A DNA stretch of 28,825 bases from a virus (IMGVR_UViG_2698536355_000015:1-28825), one strand, 5' to 3'. Shown: positions 1 through 8,764, counted from the stretch's first letter. The notes: generated by a model from the letters alone, not told the origin. Made by a program: numbers and translations.

Positions 1-240
1 ATGTTCGTCGAACTGGTTTACGACAAACGCAATGTGGCAGGGTTACCTGGGGCAAAGGATATCATCCTGAATGAGCTGACCAAGCGAGTGCATCATATCT
101 TCCCTGATGCAGAGGTGAGGGTTAAGCCGATGCAGGCGAACGCATTAAACAGCGACTGTACCAAAACAGAAAAGGAACGGTTAAACCGTATGCTGGAGGA
201 AATGTTCGAAGAATCTGATTTTTGGATGGTAGCCGAATAA
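1..240 (+). CDS. dinI: DinI-family protein (DNA-damage-inducible protein I-like)
   Basis: 79-aa product aligns along its length with E. coli DinI (81 aa), including the ...FPD... core and the acidic C-terminal ...E.DFWMVAE tail (DinI: ...ESADDWFVSE). ORF begins at window position 1, so promoter and any LexA box lie outside the window. Confidence 0.8.
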   Translation: MFVELVYDKRNVAGLPGAKDIILNELTKRVHHIFPDAEVRVKPMQANALNSDCTKTEKERLNRMLEEMFEESDFWMVAE

Positions 241-327
241 TAAGCTTTGTTTTTACATTGCTGTTTTATAGAATCCGCCGCCAGCCGGATATTTTCAATA
301 CTCGCACTATCGATTAAAACTGGCTGG

Positions 328-359
328 CCGCAGCCCCTCCTGTACACGGGGAGCTGCGG
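328..359. terminator. Putative bidirectional rho-independent terminator between convergent dinI-like and umuD'-like genes
   Basis: Inverted repeat CCGCAGC...GCTGCGG (about 7-bp stem) followed by TATTTTC on the plus strand and preceded by a T-run in minus-strand sense; lies directly after the stop of the minus-strand gene (365) and about 90 nt after dinI. Confidence 0.4.
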
Positions 360-364
360 TATTT

Positions 365-751
365 TCACATTACCGGGCAGTCATCAAATTCATCAGACCG
401 CGCATCGTTGATGATGTAGATCACCACACCAAAAACACCACTATCATCAAGTTCTGACAGGTCGTCACACTTCAACGGATCATCGAGTCTTTCCAGAACA
501 GTGCTCCGGGAAAATCGAATACGGCGCAGGGTAAACTCGCCTGCAATAGCACAGATCACGATTGAACCATCACAGGCTCTGACACCAGAGTCCACCACCA
601 GCAACGCATCTTTCATAATACCGGCACGCCAGTACGACTGGCCGGCACGCATGAAATACGTCGAAGACGGGCTTCTGATAAGCTGTTCGTCCAGTGAAAT
701 TCTTCGCTCAACATAGTCCTGCGCTGGCGACGGAAACGGCCCCATTACCAC
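365..751 (-). CDS. UmuD/UmuD'-like S24 peptidase-domain protein, N-terminally truncated at the position of the UmuD autocleavage site
   Basis: Product aligns with E. coli UmuD residues about 25-139 (GFPSPAADYVEQRI vs GPFPSPAQDYVERRI; DGEFTVKKL vs AGEFTLRRI; DVFGVVIHVV vs GVFGVVIYII). Ser60 equivalent is retained (GQSY), Lys97 equivalent is Arg. Track start is GTG at 749-751; an ATG lies two codons in (743-745). Confidence 0.75.
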   Translation of the reverse strand: MVMGPFPSPAQDYVERRISLDEQLIRSPSSTYFMRAGQSYWRAGIMKDALLVVDSGVRACDGSIVICAIAGEFTLRRIRFSRSTVLERLDDPLKCDDLSELDDSGVFGVVIYIINDARSDEFDDCPVM

Positions 752-829
752 ACCCTCCCCATCGCGCGGAGAATCCAGTATCTGTTCTCCGTCTGCTGGG
801 TTGTCTTGTCTGTAAAATCACCCTGATAT

Positions 830-1234
830 TTAGGAGCGAATTTCTTTGCGAAACAAGAGGAATCTTGATGACGCCAAGTTGACAACCATACCGGCTATAC
901 TTCCAGCTGCAACACCAATGATCGGATTTTCAAGGGCTATATTATATGTTGAGATTAGCCAACTATAGAGGCCGTAGTTGACTGAACCTCCACCTAACAT
1001 GAGAACAAAGTATGAGAGAAATTCGTTTTTAGGCTTCATGCATGAGCTTTTATCTTTGAAGGTTATCTTTCTATTAAAAACCCATGTAACGGCCACTGCT
1101 GCAAAAAAGGAAAAGGCTCGAGCTATGTAAGGCCCACAGTATCCAAGCAAAATATAAAGCACTGTGGTATCTACCAGAAAACCGATAGCCCCACTAATTC
1201 CGAAGAAAAAAATCTCTCTCATGATTTTTATCAT
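830..1234 (-). CDS. gtrA: GtrA-like small polytopic membrane protein (putative lipid-linked sugar flippase)
   Basis: About 120-134 aa with four predicted hydrophobic helices, the size and topology of the GtrA family; ATGA start/stop overlap with the upstream GT2 gene; low GC. An alternative start at Met5 is possible. Confidence 0.6.
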   Translation of the reverse strand: MIKIMREIFFFGISGAIGFLVDTTVLYILLGYCGPYIARAFSFFAAVAVTWVFNRKITFKDKSSCMKPKNEFLSYFVLMLGGGSVNYGLYSWLISTYNIALENPIIGVAAGSIAGMVVNLASSRFLLFRKEIRS

Positions 1235-2184
1235 TTATTTTTTCTCATACACGGAAGAGGAATCCCAAGATAGACCAGCCGCTTCATTTCATGCCGCCCC
1301 CTAGTCACATTGTCCAAGACTAAACCACAAACGAATGATAATGCCGCAGCAATCATGATGGAAGCCGCTAAAACTGCAGTTGGGAGTCGGGGAACCAGTC
1401 CATCACGAAGATATTCAGTTAATAGCGGGAACCCCAGTAATAATGACACCATCGCCATGCTCAAAGAACAAATCCCGAAGAAGGCAAATGGGCGTTCACT
1501 TATATATAGTCGACCAATCGTCTTTAGTATTCTCCAGCCATCTCGATATGTCGACAATTTACTGACAGACCCTTCCGGGCGTGCTCCGTAGGCTGTCATT
1601 ATTTCACCATAAGGCATGCGAAGCTCCAGAGCATGCACTGTCAGCTCAGTTTCAATTTCAAAGCCATTGGAAAGCGCAGGGAAAGATTTAGCATATCTAC
1701 GCGTGAAAGCCCGGTACCCTGAAAGCATATCGGTGAAATTCCCACCAAATATTTTAACAACACTTTGGGTAAGTATATAATTACCCCATTGATGTCCGCG
1801 CCTATACGCCTCACCAGCAATTTCCTCTTTCGTTTCTCGACAGCCAACAACCATATCAAGATGGTTATCAAGTAGTTTATCTACAAGACTTCTAACAGCA
1901 CTTGCATCATAAGTTGCATCCCCATCTACCATTACGTAGATATCAGCATCAACGTCGGCAAACATGCGGCGTACAACATTTCCCTTACCAGGAAGTTGCA
2001 CAGATACCACTTTAGCACCAGCATTGGTTGCAACAAGGGCGGTGCGATCCGTCGAATTATTATCAAAAACGTAGATATCAATCTCAGGCATAGCATCGCG
2101 AAATCCACTAACTACTGCTTCGATCGCTGCTTCTTCATTATAGCAAGGAACGATTAATGCCACATGTTGTTCACGATAATACAT
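1231..2184 (-). CDS. gtrB: GT2-family polyprenol-phosphate glycosyltransferase (GtrB/ArnC-like)
   Basis: N-terminal GT2 signature (ALIVPCYNEE...FDNNSTD...VDGDATY) followed by two C-terminal transmembrane helices, about 317 aa, the architecture of GtrB-type bactoprenol glucosyltransferases. Confidence 0.8.
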   Translation of the reverse strand: MYYREQHVALIVPCYNEEAAIEAVVSGFRDAMPEIDIYVFDNNSTDRTALVATNAGAKVVSVQLPGKGNVVRRMFADVDADIYVMVDGDATYDASAVRSLVDKLLDNHLDMVVGCRETKEEIAGEAYRRGHQWGNYILTQSVVKIFGGNFTDMLSGYRAFTRRYAKSFPALSNGFEIETELTVHALELRMPYGEIMTAYGARPEGSVSKLSTYRDGWRILKTIGRLYISERPFAFFGICSLSMAMVSLLLGFPLLTEYLRDGLVPRLPTAVLAASIMIAAALSFVCGLVLDNVTRGRHEMKRLVYLGIPLPCMRKNK

Positions 2185-2200
2185 ATCAACCTCATTTAAA

Positions 2201-3514
2201 TTATTCCTTTGTTTTTATTGACAGCAAAATAAATGGAACGCTTGCCGATGTTGCTAATATTGACCAATATGCGTATCTAAAATCAGATGCAACTCCGACA
2301 AATAGGTATGCCACAAGATACAGAAAACTTGACGTATTCAAGGCAAGAAAAACATCCCTGGCGAAACACTTACGGGATAACAGTCCATAAAGTGAAAATA
2401 TAAAAGAGGTCATAAGCCAGAACCCGGGATGAAAAACGAACGTATTTTTCAATAAGTTGGTCGTCGTTTCAAGCACTCTGAACAACCCAGTTTTTTCGTA
2501 TTTTAACCCTAATGAATTTTCTACAGTAGAATCACCCAATACTGAATTTGGATGCCACAACAATTTCATAAAGTTTTCATAACGATGATTCAGGTATGCA
2601 CCAGGTTCATGATATATAGCAAAAATCCATTTTTTCATTAATGATCCATCACCCCATGAACCAGAGTTTTGTATTTTTTTTAAAACAAAACTACAAGATC
2701 CCCAAACGTAAACATCCCATGCAGCCGCATCATAACAAGTTGAAAGCATCTTATGGCCTTCATCACTATCCCAAGTTTCCTCAAAATAGTCTTTACCTGA
2801 AAAATGAGAAATTCCCCCAAGATCAAAAACTATCAACGATTGATGAACTCGGGATTTTTCAGCATTTAAAAAACCGTAATTGAAGGTTGTTGTGAATAAA
2901 ATGGAGCATGCAGGAAAAAGAAAGAGAATAATCACCCATTTTTTCCATGACTGGAATTTACTTTTATTGAAAAGCAACCATACCAATGGTAACAAACCAA
3001 ACATCGCATTAAATCTTACCATACTTCCAATAAATAGCATGACACCAGCAAGAAGCAATATTTTCTTATTCTGCCCGTTATATTTTGAAATACTTAAGCA
3101 AATAAACCCTACAGCGCAAAGCCAAATAACCGCGTGAAGAACATCCTTCCAAATGTGGCTAAGCGTACCAACTGCAAACGGCATGAAGCCAACAACAATA
3201 ACTGATAACGAAATTTTTTTATATGTTTGCGGAATAGAAAGAGATATAAGTAATAAACCGCCCCAATACAGAAAACATTCAAGCAATAGCATTCCAAATG
3301 CCCCTGGCATCCAGTCATTCGTGATAGCCCAAATGAAACTCATAATCGGTGGATGCCAATCACTGAAATTAAAACTTGTCGCTTGCTGGTATTGATCTAA
3401 CGCATCACTAGTGATTAATCCAGGGAAAAAGGCTCGCAAAGTTATTAGCAACCCAAAAGTGGCTAAGGCAACTTGAGTAAATACTGCTTTTTTACCGAGT
3501 TTTGATGTTAGCAT
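2201..3514 (-). CDS. Polytopic membrane glycosyltransferase, GtrC-like / GT-C-fold candidate (serotype-specific transferase position)
   Basis: 437 aa with many hydrophobic helices in the N-terminal two-thirds and a more polar C-terminal region; sits immediately upstream of the GtrB-like and GtrA-like genes; very low GC. Family assignment rests on context and topology, not on a recognised motif. Confidence 0.5.
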   Translation of the reverse strand: MLTSKLGKKAVFTQVALATFGLLITLRAFFPGLITSDALDQYQQATSFNFSDWHPPIMSFIWAITNDWMPGAFGMLLLECFLYWGGLLLISLSIPQTYKKISLSVIVVGFMPFAVGTLSHIWKDVLHAVIWLCAVGFICLSISKYNGQNKKILLLAGVMLFIGSMVRFNAMFGLLPLVWLLFNKSKFQSWKKWVIILFLFPACSILFTTTFNYGFLNAEKSRVHQSLIVFDLGGISHFSGKDYFEETWDSDEGHKMLSTCYDAAAWDVYVWGSCSFVLKKIQNSGSWGDGSLMKKWIFAIYHEPGAYLNHRYENFMKLLWHPNSVLGDSTVENSLGLKYEKTGLFRVLETTTNLLKNTFVFHPGFWLMTSFIFSLYGLLSRKCFARDVFLALNTSSFLYLVAYLFVGVASDFRYAYWSILATSASVPFILLSIKTKE

Positions 3515-3690
3515 TGAATCATCTAATCTTGAGGAGTGTCATGGGGTTAATACTGTGAATTCTCCCACATGAGATATATTCAGGCAAGCATTTCGATCAG
3601 GGATTTCCTTACAGCAAGAAGCCATTGATGTGGGGATAGCGACGGCGGAGTGGAGAAATACCAAGTGCTGCTAATACGCGTTGATACCTC

Positions 3691-3709
3691 AAAAGCCGCG
3701 CGAAGCGGC
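3691..3709 (-). terminator. Rho-independent terminator downstream of tfa (end of late operon)
   Basis: Minus-strand sense GCCGC-TTCGC-GCGGC hairpin followed by TTTT, 6 nt after the tfa stop codon. Confidence 0.55.
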
Positions 3710-3715
3710 CCCTTG

Positions 3716-4129
3716 TTACGGTTGCGGAGGCCAGTTAACGTCCGGCGCGGTGCTGGTATTTGTAGCCGTCACCGCATCGATATAGTCCAGTGTGGCATTA
3801 ATCTGTTCCGTCTCAGACGTGGTGAGTTTGCGCCCCGCCTGGAGCTTCAACTGAACAACGCTGATTGACTGCATCGCCACATCAATCAGTGCCCGCCGCT
3901 GCAGTTCGGCCTGCGCTACGAGTTGCTCGTGCGACAGTTCCGGCACGGGGACGATAGTCACCATTCCATCATTATCAACAGTAAAGGTTTCGCCTGGCTG
4001 GCGGCTCATCGCTTTGCTGAACTCCTCAGCGGATACGTTGATTGCGCCCTCCGGGATTTGACGGTACTCCTCATTACTCGGGTAAAACAGACCGCCGGAA
4101 AACCAGTAAATAATATTATCCATACTCAT
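3716..4129 (-). CDS. tfa: Tail fibre assembly protein (Tfa)
   Basis: C-terminus ...TSTAPDVNWPPQP matches the conserved Tfa C-terminus (E. coli TfaE ...TSTAPDIEWPAVP); located directly after the tail fibre gene. Track ORF extends to 4177; the start chosen here is the internal Met (MSMDNII...) that avoids a 44-nt overlap. Confidence 0.8.
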   Translation of the reverse strand: MSMDNIIYWFSGGLFYPSNEEYRQIPEGAINVSAEEFSKAMSRQPGETFTVDNDGMVTIVPVPELSHEQLVAQAELQRRALIDVAMQSISVVQLKLQAGRKLTTSETEQINATLDYIDAVTATNTSTAPDVNWPPQP

Positions 4130-4133
4130 CCCC

Positions 4134-4874
4134 TTAATATCCGATAGCAATCCATGAACAGGTTTCGTAGTAGCCACTAGGTGCCCAGTTCTGAATCTGT
4201 AGTCCCTGCGTCCCTGTAGCGTTAACGTTCATTGATGCGTTTGAGCCGCTTGCCCAGCGATTCCCCATAGCGAACAAAATGGTATTGGGGAACGCGATAT
4301 TCACGTTATAGGTATTGTTTGAATTCGGCGGCGTTGAGGTGTTACCCCATTGCAGATACAGCTTCAGATTGCTGCCGGTGGTCGCAACAGAGGGAAGCTG
4401 AATATAACCATTACCTGACATCATGGACCTTACGCTGTCCATATCGATAAGATTTGATGCGCTTCCCATTCCGACATTGCGCGTAGAGGCAGAACCTAAT
4501 CCTAATGTAGTACGCATATCAGAGGCTGCTGCATTCCCCAATAATGTCCTGGCAAGCGATGTCAGGCTTGTTAATGCAGCTGTTTTTTGTCCGGTAAAAT
4601 ATGGAACTTTATCAGCCACACCTGTCAGCGCGGCTAATGCCGCCAGAGAGTCAGTATTTGCAGCAAACATCTTCTTTAAAGCAGTAAGCACCTGGGTCAT
4701 ATCATTGGGATCCAGGACCATCGAAGCTGACTCTACGATGTTCGCCAGCTCTTCCTGCACCGCGTTAAAAGCTGGCGCACGCAACCGCGTCGCCGGGGTT
4801 CCGCCGGCAACGTTGCCATCGGTATATTTGCCATCGGATGTGGCTGTAGATTCAACTTGCCCGATTCTGAGCAT
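4134..4874 (-). CDS. Tail fibre protein
   Basis: 246-aa Gly/Ser/Asn/Thr-rich protein immediately upstream of tfa and downstream of the baseplate genes; call is by position and composition. Confidence 0.55.
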
Positions 4875-4929
4875 GGGTCATCCTCACTTGATTAAGCGAT
4901 TAAAATGAAAGTCATTGTGTTGTGGTCGG

Positions 4930-5523
4930 TTATGCGTAACTGAAAATAAGACGCAGATGCGAGGGCGCAATTTTAGTGATCGCGCACTCGAGTTGTTTAT
5001 TTCCCCAGGAGGCCAGGGAATCACCACAGTAAGATGCACCTGACAGTGCGTATTTGATGGTGGTTTGCGGGGCGTTAATCTGCCAGGTAAAAGGCCACTC
5101 ATCGCCGTTCAGGGCATCGCCGCACGCCGACATACCGCACATCGCGGGGCGAAACTGTGTGATGGTGATGGTATACCCCAGCGCCGCCGCCACGCGGATG
5201 TAGTAATCGCGGTTCAGGCCGCCGGTACTGATGAGCTTTGCCACCACCATGCGCTGGCGATCGCTGACCCCGTCGATTTCACCGATAGCGCAGTCATCCG
5301 GCAGACCAAGCGTCGCCTCCCATTCCGGAAGCATACTGGTCGCAGTGGGCGGAAATGCCCCGGCAATGAGATTTATCGCGTCGTCATCCGAACGCTGGAA
5401 TGCACTTCCCAGGGCGCGCAGAACCGCCGCCTGAACTGTTTTTGACGCCCGTGGCCACGCCCTGCCGGTGGGCAGCAGCGCCCCCAGCGCGCCAGCGTAA
5501 TCATCTTTCGAAAAGAGGCTCAT
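4930..5523 (-). CDS. Mu gp48-like tail/baseplate protein (YmfQ-like)
   Basis: 197 aa, downstream of the J-like baseplate gene; size and position match Mu gp48-type proteins. Confidence 0.55.
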   Translation of the reverse strand: MSLFSKDDYAGALGALLPTGRAWPRASKTVQAAVLRALGSAFQRSDDDAINLIAGAFPPTATSMLPEWEATLGLPDDCAIGEIDGVSDRQRMVVAKLISTGGLNRDYYIRVAAALGYTITITQFRPAMCGMSACGDALNGDEWPFTWQINAPQTTIKYALSGASYCGDSLASWGNKQLECAITKIAPSHLRLIFSYA

Positions 5524-6662
5524 ACAAAATGTACCTCACCCAGCACCGGAATTTCACCCACCGCAAACGTAATATTGGCCGTCGGAGAGTTCAGGATATA
5601 GCCCGTGGTGCCGTTAACATCACCGATGCTCCCGTTGATATCCGAGAGATACACTTTCCCGGAGCCGTCAGGATTGGCCTCATCAAAAAACAGCGTTGTC
5701 AGTGCGTCCCTGATGCCCTGTACCGTGGTGGTGTCGGCATTTTTTATCCCCGCAATTTCGACGTCGATGGTCTTCGGGATTGGGGAACACACAAACACGA
5801 TGGCTGTGTCAGTCTGCAACGGGTAAATGTGATCGGCGACAGCCAGCTGGTCCCCGGTGGCCCTGACAGCCCCCCAGTCTTCCAGTTGCGATATTCCGTC
5901 GGTACCTACCGGAAACCCGCCGCTGGCGTTCTGGTCACACATGATGTACACCCCGACGGTCCCGGCCCCGTTCAGGCGACGTTTTACCCACGCCCGGGTC
6001 ACGCCAGGTACCTCGAGCGCCCATTTTTTATAATCGGTATCGCTGCCGCCCTGTGGCGGATTCTGCCACGCCAGCAGGCCACGGCTGCGAAACTCGTCTT
6101 CGCTTTCAATGTCCGCCCCGCCGGTCGCGGCAGACAGCAGCGTCACCTGCGCATCCACCCCGGCAATATTGGCATCCAGTGTCAGAAGGGTCCCGGCATC
6201 CGCATTACCGCGGGCACCGCCCCCGGTCACATCGCTGGTAATATCCGGCAGTATGGCGGTCACGGCAGCAGTACCATAGCCATTCGCCTGAATTTTCAGC
6301 TCAGCATCCGTGCGATACTGATACCCGTCGCCACGGTTCAGGATCGTACCCGGCGGAATGATGCTGTCAGCGGCGCCGGAGGCCTGTGCCGATGGCGATT
6401 TCGCGGCCGTGGCCGGTTTGCGAAAAACCTGCTTCATGGCCATCCATCCTGCCTGGAACTCATCGGTAGACGTGAACGGGTTCGTCTGCAGGGCAATATA
6501 GTCCAGGTAGGCGTAGTGCAGATGCCCCATCCCGGCATCCATATCGGCGAGCACTTTCAGGTTAGCGAAGCGCAGCAGCGCGCCGACTCCCTCCAGCTCC
6601 GCTTGCATAAACTTCCGGTTTCCGTCACGCAGCTCGCTGAGCGTCGGTCGTTTAAACGGCAT
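5520..6662 (-). CDS. Baseplate J-like protein (Mu gp47-like)
   Basis: 380 aa; size and position after the gp25-like gene; 4-nt overlaps with neighbours indicate translational coupling. Confidence 0.65.
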   Translation of the reverse strand: MPFKRPTLSELRDGNRKFMQAELEGVGALLRFANLKVLADMDAGMGHLHYAYLDYIALQTNPFTSTDEFQAGWMAMKQVFRKPATAAKSPSAQASGAADSIIPPGTILNRGDGYQYRTDAELKIQANGYGTAAVTAILPDITSDVTGGGARGNADAGTLLTLDANIAGVDAQVTLLSAATGGADIESEDEFRSRGLLAWQNPPQGGSDTDYKKWALEVPGVTRAWVKRRLNGAGTVGVYIMCDQNASGGFPVGTDGISQLEDWGAVRATGDQLAVADHIYPLQTDTAIVFVCSPIPKTIDVEIAGIKNADTTTVQGIRDALTTLFFDEANPDGSGKVYLSDINGSIGDVNGTTGYILNSPTANITFAVGEIPVLGEVHFV

Positions 6663-6663
6663 A

Positions 6664-7101
6664 TTAATGTTGCTCCCATATCCAGTAAAACCTGAATTCC
6701 TGCCAGTCTTTGCCCGGTGCCAGATACCGGATGATGAGGTTCAGGCGGTTCGGCATAACGATCTGCGCAACAGGGATAACATCGCTGACCACGCCATCAT
6801 CCTTAAGCCAGGCAAGAGCCTCGCGCGCATATTCCTCCGCTCTTTTCGCCACGTCGGTCGTCAGTTTCTGCCTCCGGAGTAACCACAACCGTGACCCGAG
6901 CTGCGATTCATCACCAGAATCCCCCCACCAGCCACGGCGATCGCTGCCTTCATAGTCGTCATCCGCGCGCGCCAGCCGGTCGGTAAACAGGCTGTCCAGT
7001 ATCGCGGTCTGTAAATCGTACCCGGTGGTGAGTGCACCCGGGCCTTCCTGCCAGTCGGCAACCATCTCGTCCACGTTCCAGAAAGAGGCAATGTCGCTCA
7101 T
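6664..7101 (-). CDS. Baseplate wedge protein, gp25/GPW-like (Mu gp46-like)
   Basis: 145 aa; size and synteny between the V-like and J-like genes. Confidence 0.6.
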   Translation of the reverse strand: MSDIASFWNVDEMVADWQEGPGALTTGYDLQTAILDSLFTDRLARADDDYEGSDRRGWWGDSGDESQLGSRLWLLRRQKLTTDVAKRAEEYAREALAWLKDDGVVSDVIPVAQIVMPNRLNLIIRYLAPGKDWQEFRFYWIWEQH

Positions 7102-7682
7102 GTCACCTTCTCCTCGGGTCGTTCACTGCGGATATCGTCATTGCCTCTCTGGGCATTTTTAACCAGGTGATCATGGTCGTTGTGCGCTTCCCGCAGGTCT
7201 TTCAGCGTGCGGGTATTGGTTTCACAGTTATCCACAATATCGCCGGTGCATTTTAAAATCGGGGTTCTGGCCAGAACACTCTCGCTGGCGTTAATGGTCA
7301 CGTTGGTCGCGTTATTGACTTCCACATCCTTGCCCTTCGCATCGACAAATACTCCATCTTTGGTCAGCAGCACCTCCTGCCCCCACTGGCTGTAGATAAC
7401 GGTTTCGCCGTCTTTCAGCCCGGCGCGCCGGTACCCCTGATGATTCGTGGCAATGACCACCGGACTTGAACGGTCACCGCCAATAAAGGCCAGGACCACG
7501 TCGGTGCCTTTCGGCAGCCCGGAAGAAAAGCCAAACTCGGCGAGCCGCGGCGCGCTGGCGACCTCAAGCGGCGTCTGGTACTGAACAGTCTGCACAACAC
7601 CACTGTCTTTCAGCGCAGTGATCCGGCCAATGCCCAGCATGCTGGCGATGCGGGTGGCGGCGCGCCTGACTAACTGGTTCAT
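7098..7682 (-). CDS. Baseplate assembly protein V-like (central spike, Mu gp45-like)
   Basis: 194 aa; synteny (P-like, V-like, gp25-like, J-like) as in Mu-type tails. Confidence 0.6.
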   Translation of the reverse strand: MNQLVRRAATRIASMLGIGRITALKDSGVVQTVQYQTPLEVASAPRLAEFGFSSGLPKGTDVVLAFIGGDRSSPVVIATNHQGYRRAGLKDGETVIYSQWGQEVLLTKDGVFVDAKGKDVEVNNATNVTINASESVLARTPILKCTGDIVDNCETNTRTLKDLREAHNDHDHLVKNAQRGNDDIRSERPEEKVT

Positions 7683-8764
7683 GTATTTAACCCCGGTATC
7701 TGCTGGTAGAAGGCGTAGGGCTGAACTTCAAACGCTGCCGGCGGCATCAGTGTCATGCGTGCATGCGTCCCGTTGTCATCACGCATGTAGGTGACATCTG
7801 CCAGCAGCAGCTCGGTATCCGGGAGGCGGAACGCCGGCATATTCACCGGAATAAGGGTATTGGGCTCCCACAGCTTCCCCGCCTCATCCCGCCAGGAGTC
7901 TGTCGTCACAGTCAGCGGCTTCGAGCGGCCATACCGGCGGTTCATTTCCCAGTCGATAGCGCGCTGCGCCTGTTGTGATGCCATCAGAGTGCTTTCAATA
8001 ATGGAAATATGCTTTCGGTAGCGCATACGGGCGGCTTCCGGATCCCTCGCCGTCGCCAGCGTCACGGCGTCATAGGCCGAATCCGGCGAATAGCCTGCTA
8101 TCGGGGAAATACCCATAGAAACACCGACATAGTCAGAGAACCTGTCAGCCATCGATTTACGGTAATAAGCCTGCTCGACGTTCACACCCTCGGCAATACC
8201 GCTGGCGGCACGGCGCGTACCGACGCGGGTCAGCAGCAGGTTGCCGTCAGGCTGGTCGTAATAAAGCAGGGCTGACCACCGGGCCACCCGCTCTATAATC
8301 TCCTGCGGTGACTCCCCCCAGTTAAGGGTGAACTGGGGAACCTTAATCAGATCGCTTACATCCGTCGAGACGCTGATGCCGTAATACGATGCCAGCCGCG
8401 TGGCGATTTCCAGCGCATTACCGCCATTGATGACGTTGTTGGGCCACTCAGCGGAGCAATCCACCAGATCCTGGCATTTGCTTCTCCCCGTCGCGCGCAC
8501 CTCGTGGCGGGAGCGCGATATTGACGGCTCCCAGTCATCCACATAGCCCGTCAGTGTCAGGTCATTCCCGATACGGACGGTACAGGGCATCCCTTCTTCC
8601 ACAAGCTGGCGGTTATCACTGCCGGGAAAATAATCCATCAGACCGAGATCGAAATCAGAGGGAAAACGTTCAATACCGCGGGTCACCCGGACTGAATCCC
8701 AGCCCTCAATAATTTTACCGCCGACCGTCAGCGAGACGGCGTCCTGATCGCTGTCTGCACTCAT
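7679..8764 (-). CDS. Mu gpP-like tail/baseplate hub protein
   Basis: 361 aa directly after the N-like gene, as in Mu-like tail modules. Confidence 0.6.
   Translation of the reverse strand: MSADSDQDAVSLTVGGKIIEGWDSVRVTRGIERFPSDFDLGLMDYFPGSDNRQLVEEGMPCTVRIGNDLTLTGYVDDWEPSISRSRHEVRATGRSKCQDLVDCSAEWPNNVINGGNALEIATRLASYYGISVSTDVSDLIKVPQFTLNWGESPQEIIERVARWSALLYYDQPDGNLLLTRVGTRRAASGIAEGVNVEQAYYRKSMADRFSDYVGVSMGISPIAGYSPDSAYDAVTLATARDPEAARMRYRKHISIIESTLMASQQAQRAIDWEMNRRYGRSKPLTVTTDSWRDEAGKLWEPNTLIPVNMPAFRLPDTELLLADVTYMRDDNGTHARMTLMPPAAFEVQPYAFYQQIPGLNT

Follow-up and report, generated by a model that had tools for sequence, protein, structure and literature searches.

An intact HumD-family gene deprived of its SOS operator by a glycosylation cassette in an Escherichia coli prophage

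The viral sequence IMGVR_UViG_2698536355_000015:1-28825 (28,825 nucleotides, hereafter the window) carries on its minus strand, at positions 365..745, a humD-like gene whose product resembles UmuD and has no N-terminal arm. A first-pass annotation had read this gene as a UmuD' mimic that owed its short form to the insertion of a gene cassette and that had kept a relic of the arm just upstream. Our comparative analysis points, with good confidence, to another history: the gene is an intact member of the HumD family whose SOS operator was lost to a glycosylation cassette, and the supposed arm relic is the tail of a neighboring gene, orf79, read off frame.

The minus-strand open reading frame (ORF) that runs to the stop codon at 365..367 offers two possible starts, a GTG at 751 and an ATG at 745. 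The ATG is the true start of humD, because translation from it gives a product beginning with MGPFPSPAQ, a GGAGG motif precedes it, and its position is the start found across the family. The GGAGG Shine-Dalgarno (SD) sequence, read directly from the DNA (754..758, minus strand), lies 8 nt before the ATG, inside the last orf79 codons (M-G-R), and an SD-like motif is found 7-10 nt before the humD ATG in all 11 aligned junctions. The resulting coding sequence specifies 126 amino acids, ends in INDARSDEFDDCPVM, and is assigned here to a HumD-family pre-truncated UmuD' analogue. Its product matches the Pfam model Peptidase_S24 (PF00717) with 36.1 bits, and the best matches among solved structures are those of UmuD' (PDB entry 1umu, E = 2.6e-22). 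In the alignment with UmuD the product starts at the cleavage position, MGPFPSPAQDYVERRI versus C24-G25-FPSPAADYVEQRI, with Met replacing Cys24 and Gly25 following. These data are in agreement with two statements of the first-pass annotation, namely that a UmuD-like S24 gene starts at the autocleavage site and that its direct translation, with no arm upstream, would give a UmuD'-like species needing no RecA-mediated cleavage.

We compared window positions 1..829 with three relatives: the ENA metagenome contig L090 (positions 1394..567; 97.6% DNA identity by blastn), L005 (97.8% DNA identity, with HumD proteins 99% identical), and L004 (83.3% DNA identity, with HumD proteins 84% identical). The humD ORF of the window is intact and has retained its SD sequence. 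Between the window and L004, the ratio of nonsynonymous to synonymous substitution rates (dN/dS) of humD is 0.089 (51 synonymous and 26 nonsynonymous changes; dS 1.08), and L005 differs from the window by five synonymous changes and one nonsynonymous change. With an intact ORF and such a ratio, the earlier suggestion of a decaying remnant is not favored; expression could still have been lost when the promoter was removed, a point taken up below.

The assignment to the HumD family is based on profile scores, on near neighbors, and on a family alignment. The NCBIfam equivalog model NF051876, "HumD family translesion DNA polymerase," gives 164.7 bits against a cutoff of 120 and is matched over positions 2-129 of 129. 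The UmuD model NF007621 gives 91.8 bits, under its cutoff of 110, and the LexA model gives 30.7 bits against a cutoff of 110.95; the protein consists of the S24 domain alone, without the N-terminal DNA-binding helix-turn-helix domain of LexA and of CI-type phage repressors. By tblastn, the nearest phage proteins, at 52-56% identity, are "UmuD" of Enterobacter phage vB_Ecl_MII_003, HumD of P1 and of P7/D6, N15 gp26, phiKO2 gp23, and the UmuD-like proteins of HK639 and HK140. Identity to any protein in species-representative genomes is 61% at most, and the exact 126-residue sequence is present in NCBI/UniRef for E. coli under the names "S24 family peptidase" or "HumD family translesion DNA polymerase."

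For the family alignment, 120 HumD representatives were taken from a collection of 5.8 billion proteins and joined with the query to give 121 sequences. Met occupies the C24 position in 120/120 representatives and Gly the G25 position in 119 of them, so that all start with M-G or M-A. The start at C24-G25 is, by this comparison, a defining and ancient trait of the family, shared with P1 HumD, N15 gp26, and the HK140 protein, and the proposal that an insertion caused the pre-truncation has to be given up. A C-terminal tail, INDARSGEFDDCPVM, with the pattern INDARxxEFDDCPV[MIL], also occurs throughout the family, the window protein included, and is lacking from UmuD; its ending EFDDCPVM is nearly invariant among HumD proteins. 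No umuC-like sequence was found anywhere in the 28.8-kb window. The first-pass annotation was right to remark on the missing partner, which is nevertheless nothing special to this locus: umuC is absent from 18/18 HumD-type loci examined (flanks up to ~6 kb, less on short contigs), making its absence the family norm.

Judged from these comparisons, the window gene is an ordinary HumD-family member, and the pre-truncated UmuD' mimic is a known kind of protein. Pre-activated UmuD' analogues of phages have been known since P1 HumD (1999) and form a curated NCBIfam family, and the exact protein is already labeled, so the headline adds nothing new. The RefSeq annotation of P1 states that HumD functionally complements E. 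coli UmuD', and a passage of PMC7092418, citing McLenigan et al. 1999, describes the P1 product as a shorter, already activated UmuD named HumD. Functional replacement of UmuD' in UmuC-dependent mutagenesis is known for P1 HumD only (that annotation and the passage in PMC7092418).

The catalytic residues bear on the same question. Alignment to UmuD and to the family places the equivalent of UmuD Ser60, the nucleophile position, at Ser37 (codon TCG, 635..637, minus strand) and that of Lys97, the general-base position, at Arg74 (codon CGC, 524..526, minus strand), exactly the retained Ser and the Lys-to-Arg exchange that had been described at first. In the 121 sequences, the Ser60 equivalent is Thr in 102, Ser in 16, Met in two, and Ala in one, and the Lys97 equivalent is Lys in 96, Met in 13, and Arg in 12; the Arg-bearing members are spread over several lineages and share just 50-64% identity with one another. 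The catalytic dyad is, on this alignment, already degenerate family-wide, and the Lys-to-Arg exchange is real without being a distinguishing feature. Such degeneracy is to be expected, because HumD proteins never have to cleave themselves. Nohmi and colleagues reportedly found in 1988 that mutagenesis by engineered UmuD' does not need Ser60. A dyad that can be dispensed with and is no longer intact in much of the family (Thr for Ser in ~84%; Lys replaced in ~20%) fits the idea that the chemistry of cleavage ceases to matter in proteins without the arm.

The DNA just upstream of humD, at 752..817, had been taken for a recognizable UmuD N-terminal arm without an ATG and closed by a stop. The reading of the frame holds in part: a stop does lie 24 codons up, and the sole usable start is the GTG two codons up. 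The arm itself is not borne out. In a different frame from humD, the same DNA encodes the 3' remnant of orf79 (phrog_3893; 745..828, minus strand), comprising the last 27 codons, YQGDFTDKTTQQTENRYWILRAMGRVW (748..828), and the stop codon TAA (747..745); the first 52 codons are gone. The intact protein P0121 (L090 412..651) ends in exactly the residues of the remnant, and in the window as in the relatives the stop of orf79 and the ATG of humD share one base (TAATG). Directly upstream of humD, L090, L005, and L004 all carry the 79-residue orf79, which is whole in L090 and L004; the L005 contig ends inside it. The protein is predicted to form a winged helix, no Pfam or NCBIfam model matches it, and phrog_3893 is a family of unassigned function.

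Substitutions in this stretch discriminate between the two frames. The 14 differences between the window and L004 are distributed 4/0/10 over codon positions 1/2/3 in the orf79 frame, which becomes 10/4/0 in the humD frame, and the amino acid identity is 24/27 in the orf79 frame versus 13/27 in the humD frame. The pattern by codon position indicates that the orf79 frame is the one under selection. Read in the humD frame, the window shows 6/24 identities to UmuD residues 1-24, L004 shows 1/24, and HK140 shows 0/24 with stops; the 6/24 resemblance is nominally unlikely (shuffle p ~2e-4), a value that applies to a single register. In most relatives (10 loci checked), the humD frame upstream is open for just 5-37 codons and has no start codon. 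We rejected a UmuD arm relic at 752..817 on the codon-position pattern, the identities in the two frames, register-specific shuffles, and the openness of the upstream frame. The apparent arm therefore arises by chance, from the orf79 tail translated off frame.

A longer, arm-bearing product was also considered and rejected. Two 168-residue calls from metagenomes (P0154 and P0157; L090 525..1031) extend humD by 42 codons upstream, spuriously reading through orf79 in the wrong frame, because in the L090 lineage the humD frame is by chance open and offers an ATG at -42. This ATG is confined to the L090 lineage, and the corresponding frame is closed in the window.

The loss on the upstream side can be traced to the cassette. 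Homology to L090, L005, and L004 stops exactly at 829, one base past the stop codon of a gtrA-like gene (832..830), which puts the right-hand cassette junction at 829..830. The cassette stands in place of 1,051 bp of L004 that hold the end of a tail-fibre-assembly gene, a 78-residue ORF, the LexA box of the module, and the first 52 orf79 codons. Read from this alignment, the cassette replaced the LexA box/promoter together with those 52 codons and left humD itself undamaged. The suggestion that the cassette disrupted the 5' end thus survives for the sequence upstream, with orf79 and the LexA box as its casualties, and fails for a humD arm.

A LexA box (TACTGT-N8-ACAGTA-like; CTG-N10-CAG) is found 29-42 nt before the first gene of the module in 17/17 comparison loci. 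These include P1, N15, Enterobacter phage, HK140, L004, L090, and Atlantibacter loci, as well as loci of Enterobacter, Citrobacter, Dryocola, Phytobacter, and Acerihabitans and an orf79-umuDC operon of Pantoea. In the window, neither the 200 nt before humD nor the 250 nt before the cassette contain such a box. A degenerate candidate, CAG-N10-CAG at ~810-825, was rejected, as it has no CTG half-site and lies within the orf79 remnant, and a pattern search allowing one mismatch found no box near humD. By this measure, the window humD is the sole copy without an SOS operator among the 18 examined. The convergent dinI keeps its own LexA box, TACTGTTTATTTATACAGTA, which lies upstream of it in contig L091, just outside the window.

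These results are consistent with the following sequence of events. The gene belongs to an SOS moron module at the prophage end with the order LexA box, orf79, and humD and with a convergent dinI. In this ssrA-integrated E. coli prophage, the low-GC glycosylation cassette has taken the place of the LexA box/promoter and of the first 52 orf79 codons; with box and promoter replaced, humD would be off its usual SOS operator. If humD is expressed, transcription would probably read through from the cassette operon, and translation would rely on the GGAGG of humD itself. A scan of 745..830, which covers the 84-nt gap between gtrA and humD, found no terminator-like element, and co-transcription of humD with the cassette operon would be the simplest inference. 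The protein would be made already "activated," having the S24 fold, no N-terminal arm, and no need of a Ser-Lys dyad of its own. If it behaves like P1 HumD, the protein would most likely dimerize and replace host UmuD' in the UmuD'2-UmuC translesion complex of E. coli (DNA polymerase V, Pol V), so that the RecA*-dependent cleavage checkpoint would be bypassed.

Several observations weigh against this account. The gap between gtrA and humD yielded no convincing sigma-70 promoter, and a hairpin that includes the humD SD sequence is predicted in the window lineage. With the family-universal LexA promoter and the tightly juxtaposed upstream gene gone, humD may be poorly expressed. The cassette-bearing copies are nearly identical, so that purifying selection since the insertion is not measurable and the low dN/dS reflects the history before it. 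Finally, identity to P1 HumD, the sole experimentally tested member of the family, is just 54%. The hairpin was considered separately as a conserved device that sequesters the SD sequence for translational coupling; the consensus fold of the 11 junctions reached just -3.1 kcal/mol with no covariation, and this idea is not supported.

The same observations can be read as the silencing of a passenger gene: after losing its SOS promoter and orf79, humD would be unexpressed, intact but functionally dead, and too recent in this state to have decayed. We consider this rather unlikely. In its favor, the window has neither LexA box nor promoter, as opposed to the box in 17/17 comparison loci, no promoter-like site lies between gtrA and humD, the predicted local hairpin holds the SD sequence, and the cassette-bearing copies are at least 99.97% identical, which makes the event recent. 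However, the ORF, the SD sequence, and the terminator are all intact, and humD is co-directional with the cassette operon and lies 84 nt past it with no terminator-like element between them. Moreover, the arrangement occurs on many E. coli contigs, and the SD hairpin is not conserved.

It is also conceivable, though quite unlikely, that HumD is not a Pol V subunit and serves mainly to modulate RecA*/SOS signaling, for instance by occupying, together with DinI and the orf79 product, the groove of the RecA filament in competition with LexA, UmuD, or the phage repressor. HumD is found in a module with dinI in the window, L004, L005, L090, and HK140, umuC accompanies it in 0/18 HumD loci, and solved structures place UmuD and DinI in one groove of the RecA filament (PMC9926225; PDB entry 8gmt is a match). 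Against such a role, P1 HumD reportedly stands in for UmuD' in mutagenesis, and the arm bearing the cleavage site that is presented to RecA* is absent. That insertion of the gtr cassette took the front part off a formerly complete, cleavable umuD, leaving an arm relic in frame and a UmuD' mimic by accident, is scarcely credible: the six identities in the 24 upstream codons and a cassette junction only 84 nt upstream of humD can be cited for it, but the comparative data effectively refute it, as the M-G start is universal in the family and present in cassette-free L090, L004, HK140, P1, and N15, the upstream stretch is the conserved orf79 C-terminus in the other frame, and the arm likeness is gone in L004 and HK140, with an upstream humD frame that is mostly short and startless.

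The sole unusual aspect of this HumD gene is regulatory: a copy devoid of the SOS box, made by a glycosylation moron, amounts to a natural experiment on SOS-independent HumD expression. We regard as unlikely the further step that the window HumD, freed from LexA and joined to a surface-glycosylation operon expressed in lysogens, provides lysogens with a standing pool of UmuD' mimic. If this were true, both temporal brakes on Pol V assembly would be gone, namely LexA repression of the D subunit and the slow RecA*-mediated cleavage; alternatively, the pool would titrate host UmuD and UmuC. Either way, mutagenesis after damage would change in timing or level in the E. coli lineage with the ssrA prophage.

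Comparison with characterized systems places the window gene closest to the P1-type proteins. Like P1 HumD, N15 gp26, phiKO2 gp23, and the UmuD-like proteins of HK140 and HK639, the window protein has the S24 C-terminal fold and starts at C24-G25, and it shares with P1-type HumD the tail NDARSxEFDDCPVM, the lack of an adjacent umuC, and the position of a prophage moron. It differs from them in a one-residue insertion after Gly2 (MGPFPSPA), in a shorter loop before the last strand, in the Arg at the Lys97 position (a minority state, ~10% of the family), and in the missing LexA box that all 17 comparison loci have upstream. With E. coli UmuD/UmuD', the accessory subunit of Pol V (PDB entries 1umu, 1ay9, 1i4v, and 8gmt), homology extends from Gly25 to the C-terminus at ~42% identity, and the Ser60 equivalent is kept. 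Unlike UmuD, the window protein has no arm or cleavage site, carries Arg for Lys97, has one residue deleted before the Ser, bears an extra 10-residue C-terminal tail, and is not encoded in an operon with umuC.

The lambdoid modules composed of LexA box, orf79, and humD (plus dinI), such as HK140 gp26-gp28, resemble the window in content and in position, past the tail fibre genes near the prophage end, and there too the stop codon of orf79 touches or overlaps the start of humD. The window differs from them in that only the last 27 codons of orf79 survive and the glycosylation cassette stands in place of the operator/promoter. The plasmid operons impCAB (mentioned in PMC7092418), mucAB, and rumAB likewise place UmuD-type genes on mobile elements. 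Those operons are SOS-controlled and, in contrast to the window, specify UmuD homologues that are complete and can be cleaved, each accompanied by a UmuC homologue of its own. A small gene likewise opens impCAB, and its product ImpC is DinI-like. orf79 as an ImpC/DinI-like protein was considered and rejected, as it gives no match to the DinI Pfam model even at E ≤ 1. orf79, which leads SOS-box operons containing humD or, in Pantoea, umuDC, may merit a study of its own.

Downstream of humD, a G+C-rich hairpin followed by a U-run (328..359, minus strand; fold of -25.2 kcal/mol and terminator scan) is the likely terminator common to the convergent humD and dinI, and it is kept in L004, L005, and L090. 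The dinI-like gene (1..240, plus strand) encodes 79 amino acids and matches Pfam DinI with 77.7 bits and phrog_189.

The glycosylation cassette was delimited by Pfam and PHROG matches and by base composition. Its genes occupy 830..3514 on the minus strand, co-directional with humD, and the low-GC region spans 830..~3700, with 34-44% GC versus 51-55% in the flanks. It consists of a gene for a 437-residue polytopic membrane protein (2201..3514, minus strand), a GT2/GtrB-like gene (1231..2184, minus strand), and the GtrA-like gene (830..1234, minus strand), the latter two assigned by Pfam/PHROG; this order is the reverse of the classical gtrA-gtrB-gtrC. The 437-residue protein has no Pfam, PHROG, or NCBIfam match, and searches of ~50,000 phage records for the source of the cassette, by blastn in distant mode with 830..3764 and by tblastn with the 437-residue protein, gave no match. 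The 24-mer across the cassette/orf79 junction had no exact match in IMG/VR or JGI metagenome contigs.

The window represents the late/tail half of a contractile-tailed temperate phage, with genes for sheath, baseplate, tape measure, fibre, and fibre chaperone, and it is ~75% identical to Citrobacter phage phiNP across 36% of the query. Just outside window position 1, the prophage end adjoins ssrA (the tmRNA gene; tag ANDENYALAA; L091 6746..7375), and the flanking DNA matches recN-smpB of E. coli K-12 at 100% identity. Among 5,426 complete RefSeq E. coli genomes we found no close copy of the prophage, and megablast of window 1..1300 gave no match; at the sensitivity that brought up other HumD-type genes, the best of them with ~71% DNA identity, 479 genomes matched the queried stretch. 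A host other than E. coli, which the missing megablast match had suggested, was rejected on the identity of the L091 flanks. The prophage does occur in numerous draft assemblies and SRA runs, and isolates that carry it include those of assemblies GCA_012594945.1 and GCA_012614485.1. By exact-protein look-up, the arrangement is carried by at least 24 contigs (78 index blocks), two NCBI E. coli drafts among them. Those contigs are at least 99.97% identical to window 1..6745, and all have the order cassette, orf79 remnant, humD, and dinI.

Two observations concern reverse transcriptases near this type of module. In the two NCBI E. coli drafts (L092 and L093, both at 7169..8653), a gene for a 494-residue reverse transcriptase (RVT_1) that L091 lacks stands between dinI and smpB/ssrA, and it may represent a group II intron or an insertion of the retron type where the prophage meets ssrA. 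On the Atlantibacter hermannii contig L006 (1013..4193), genes for a TIR-domain protein and a 574-residue reverse transcriptase stand beside the orf79-humD module, in surroundings that look like a defense-island neighborhood.
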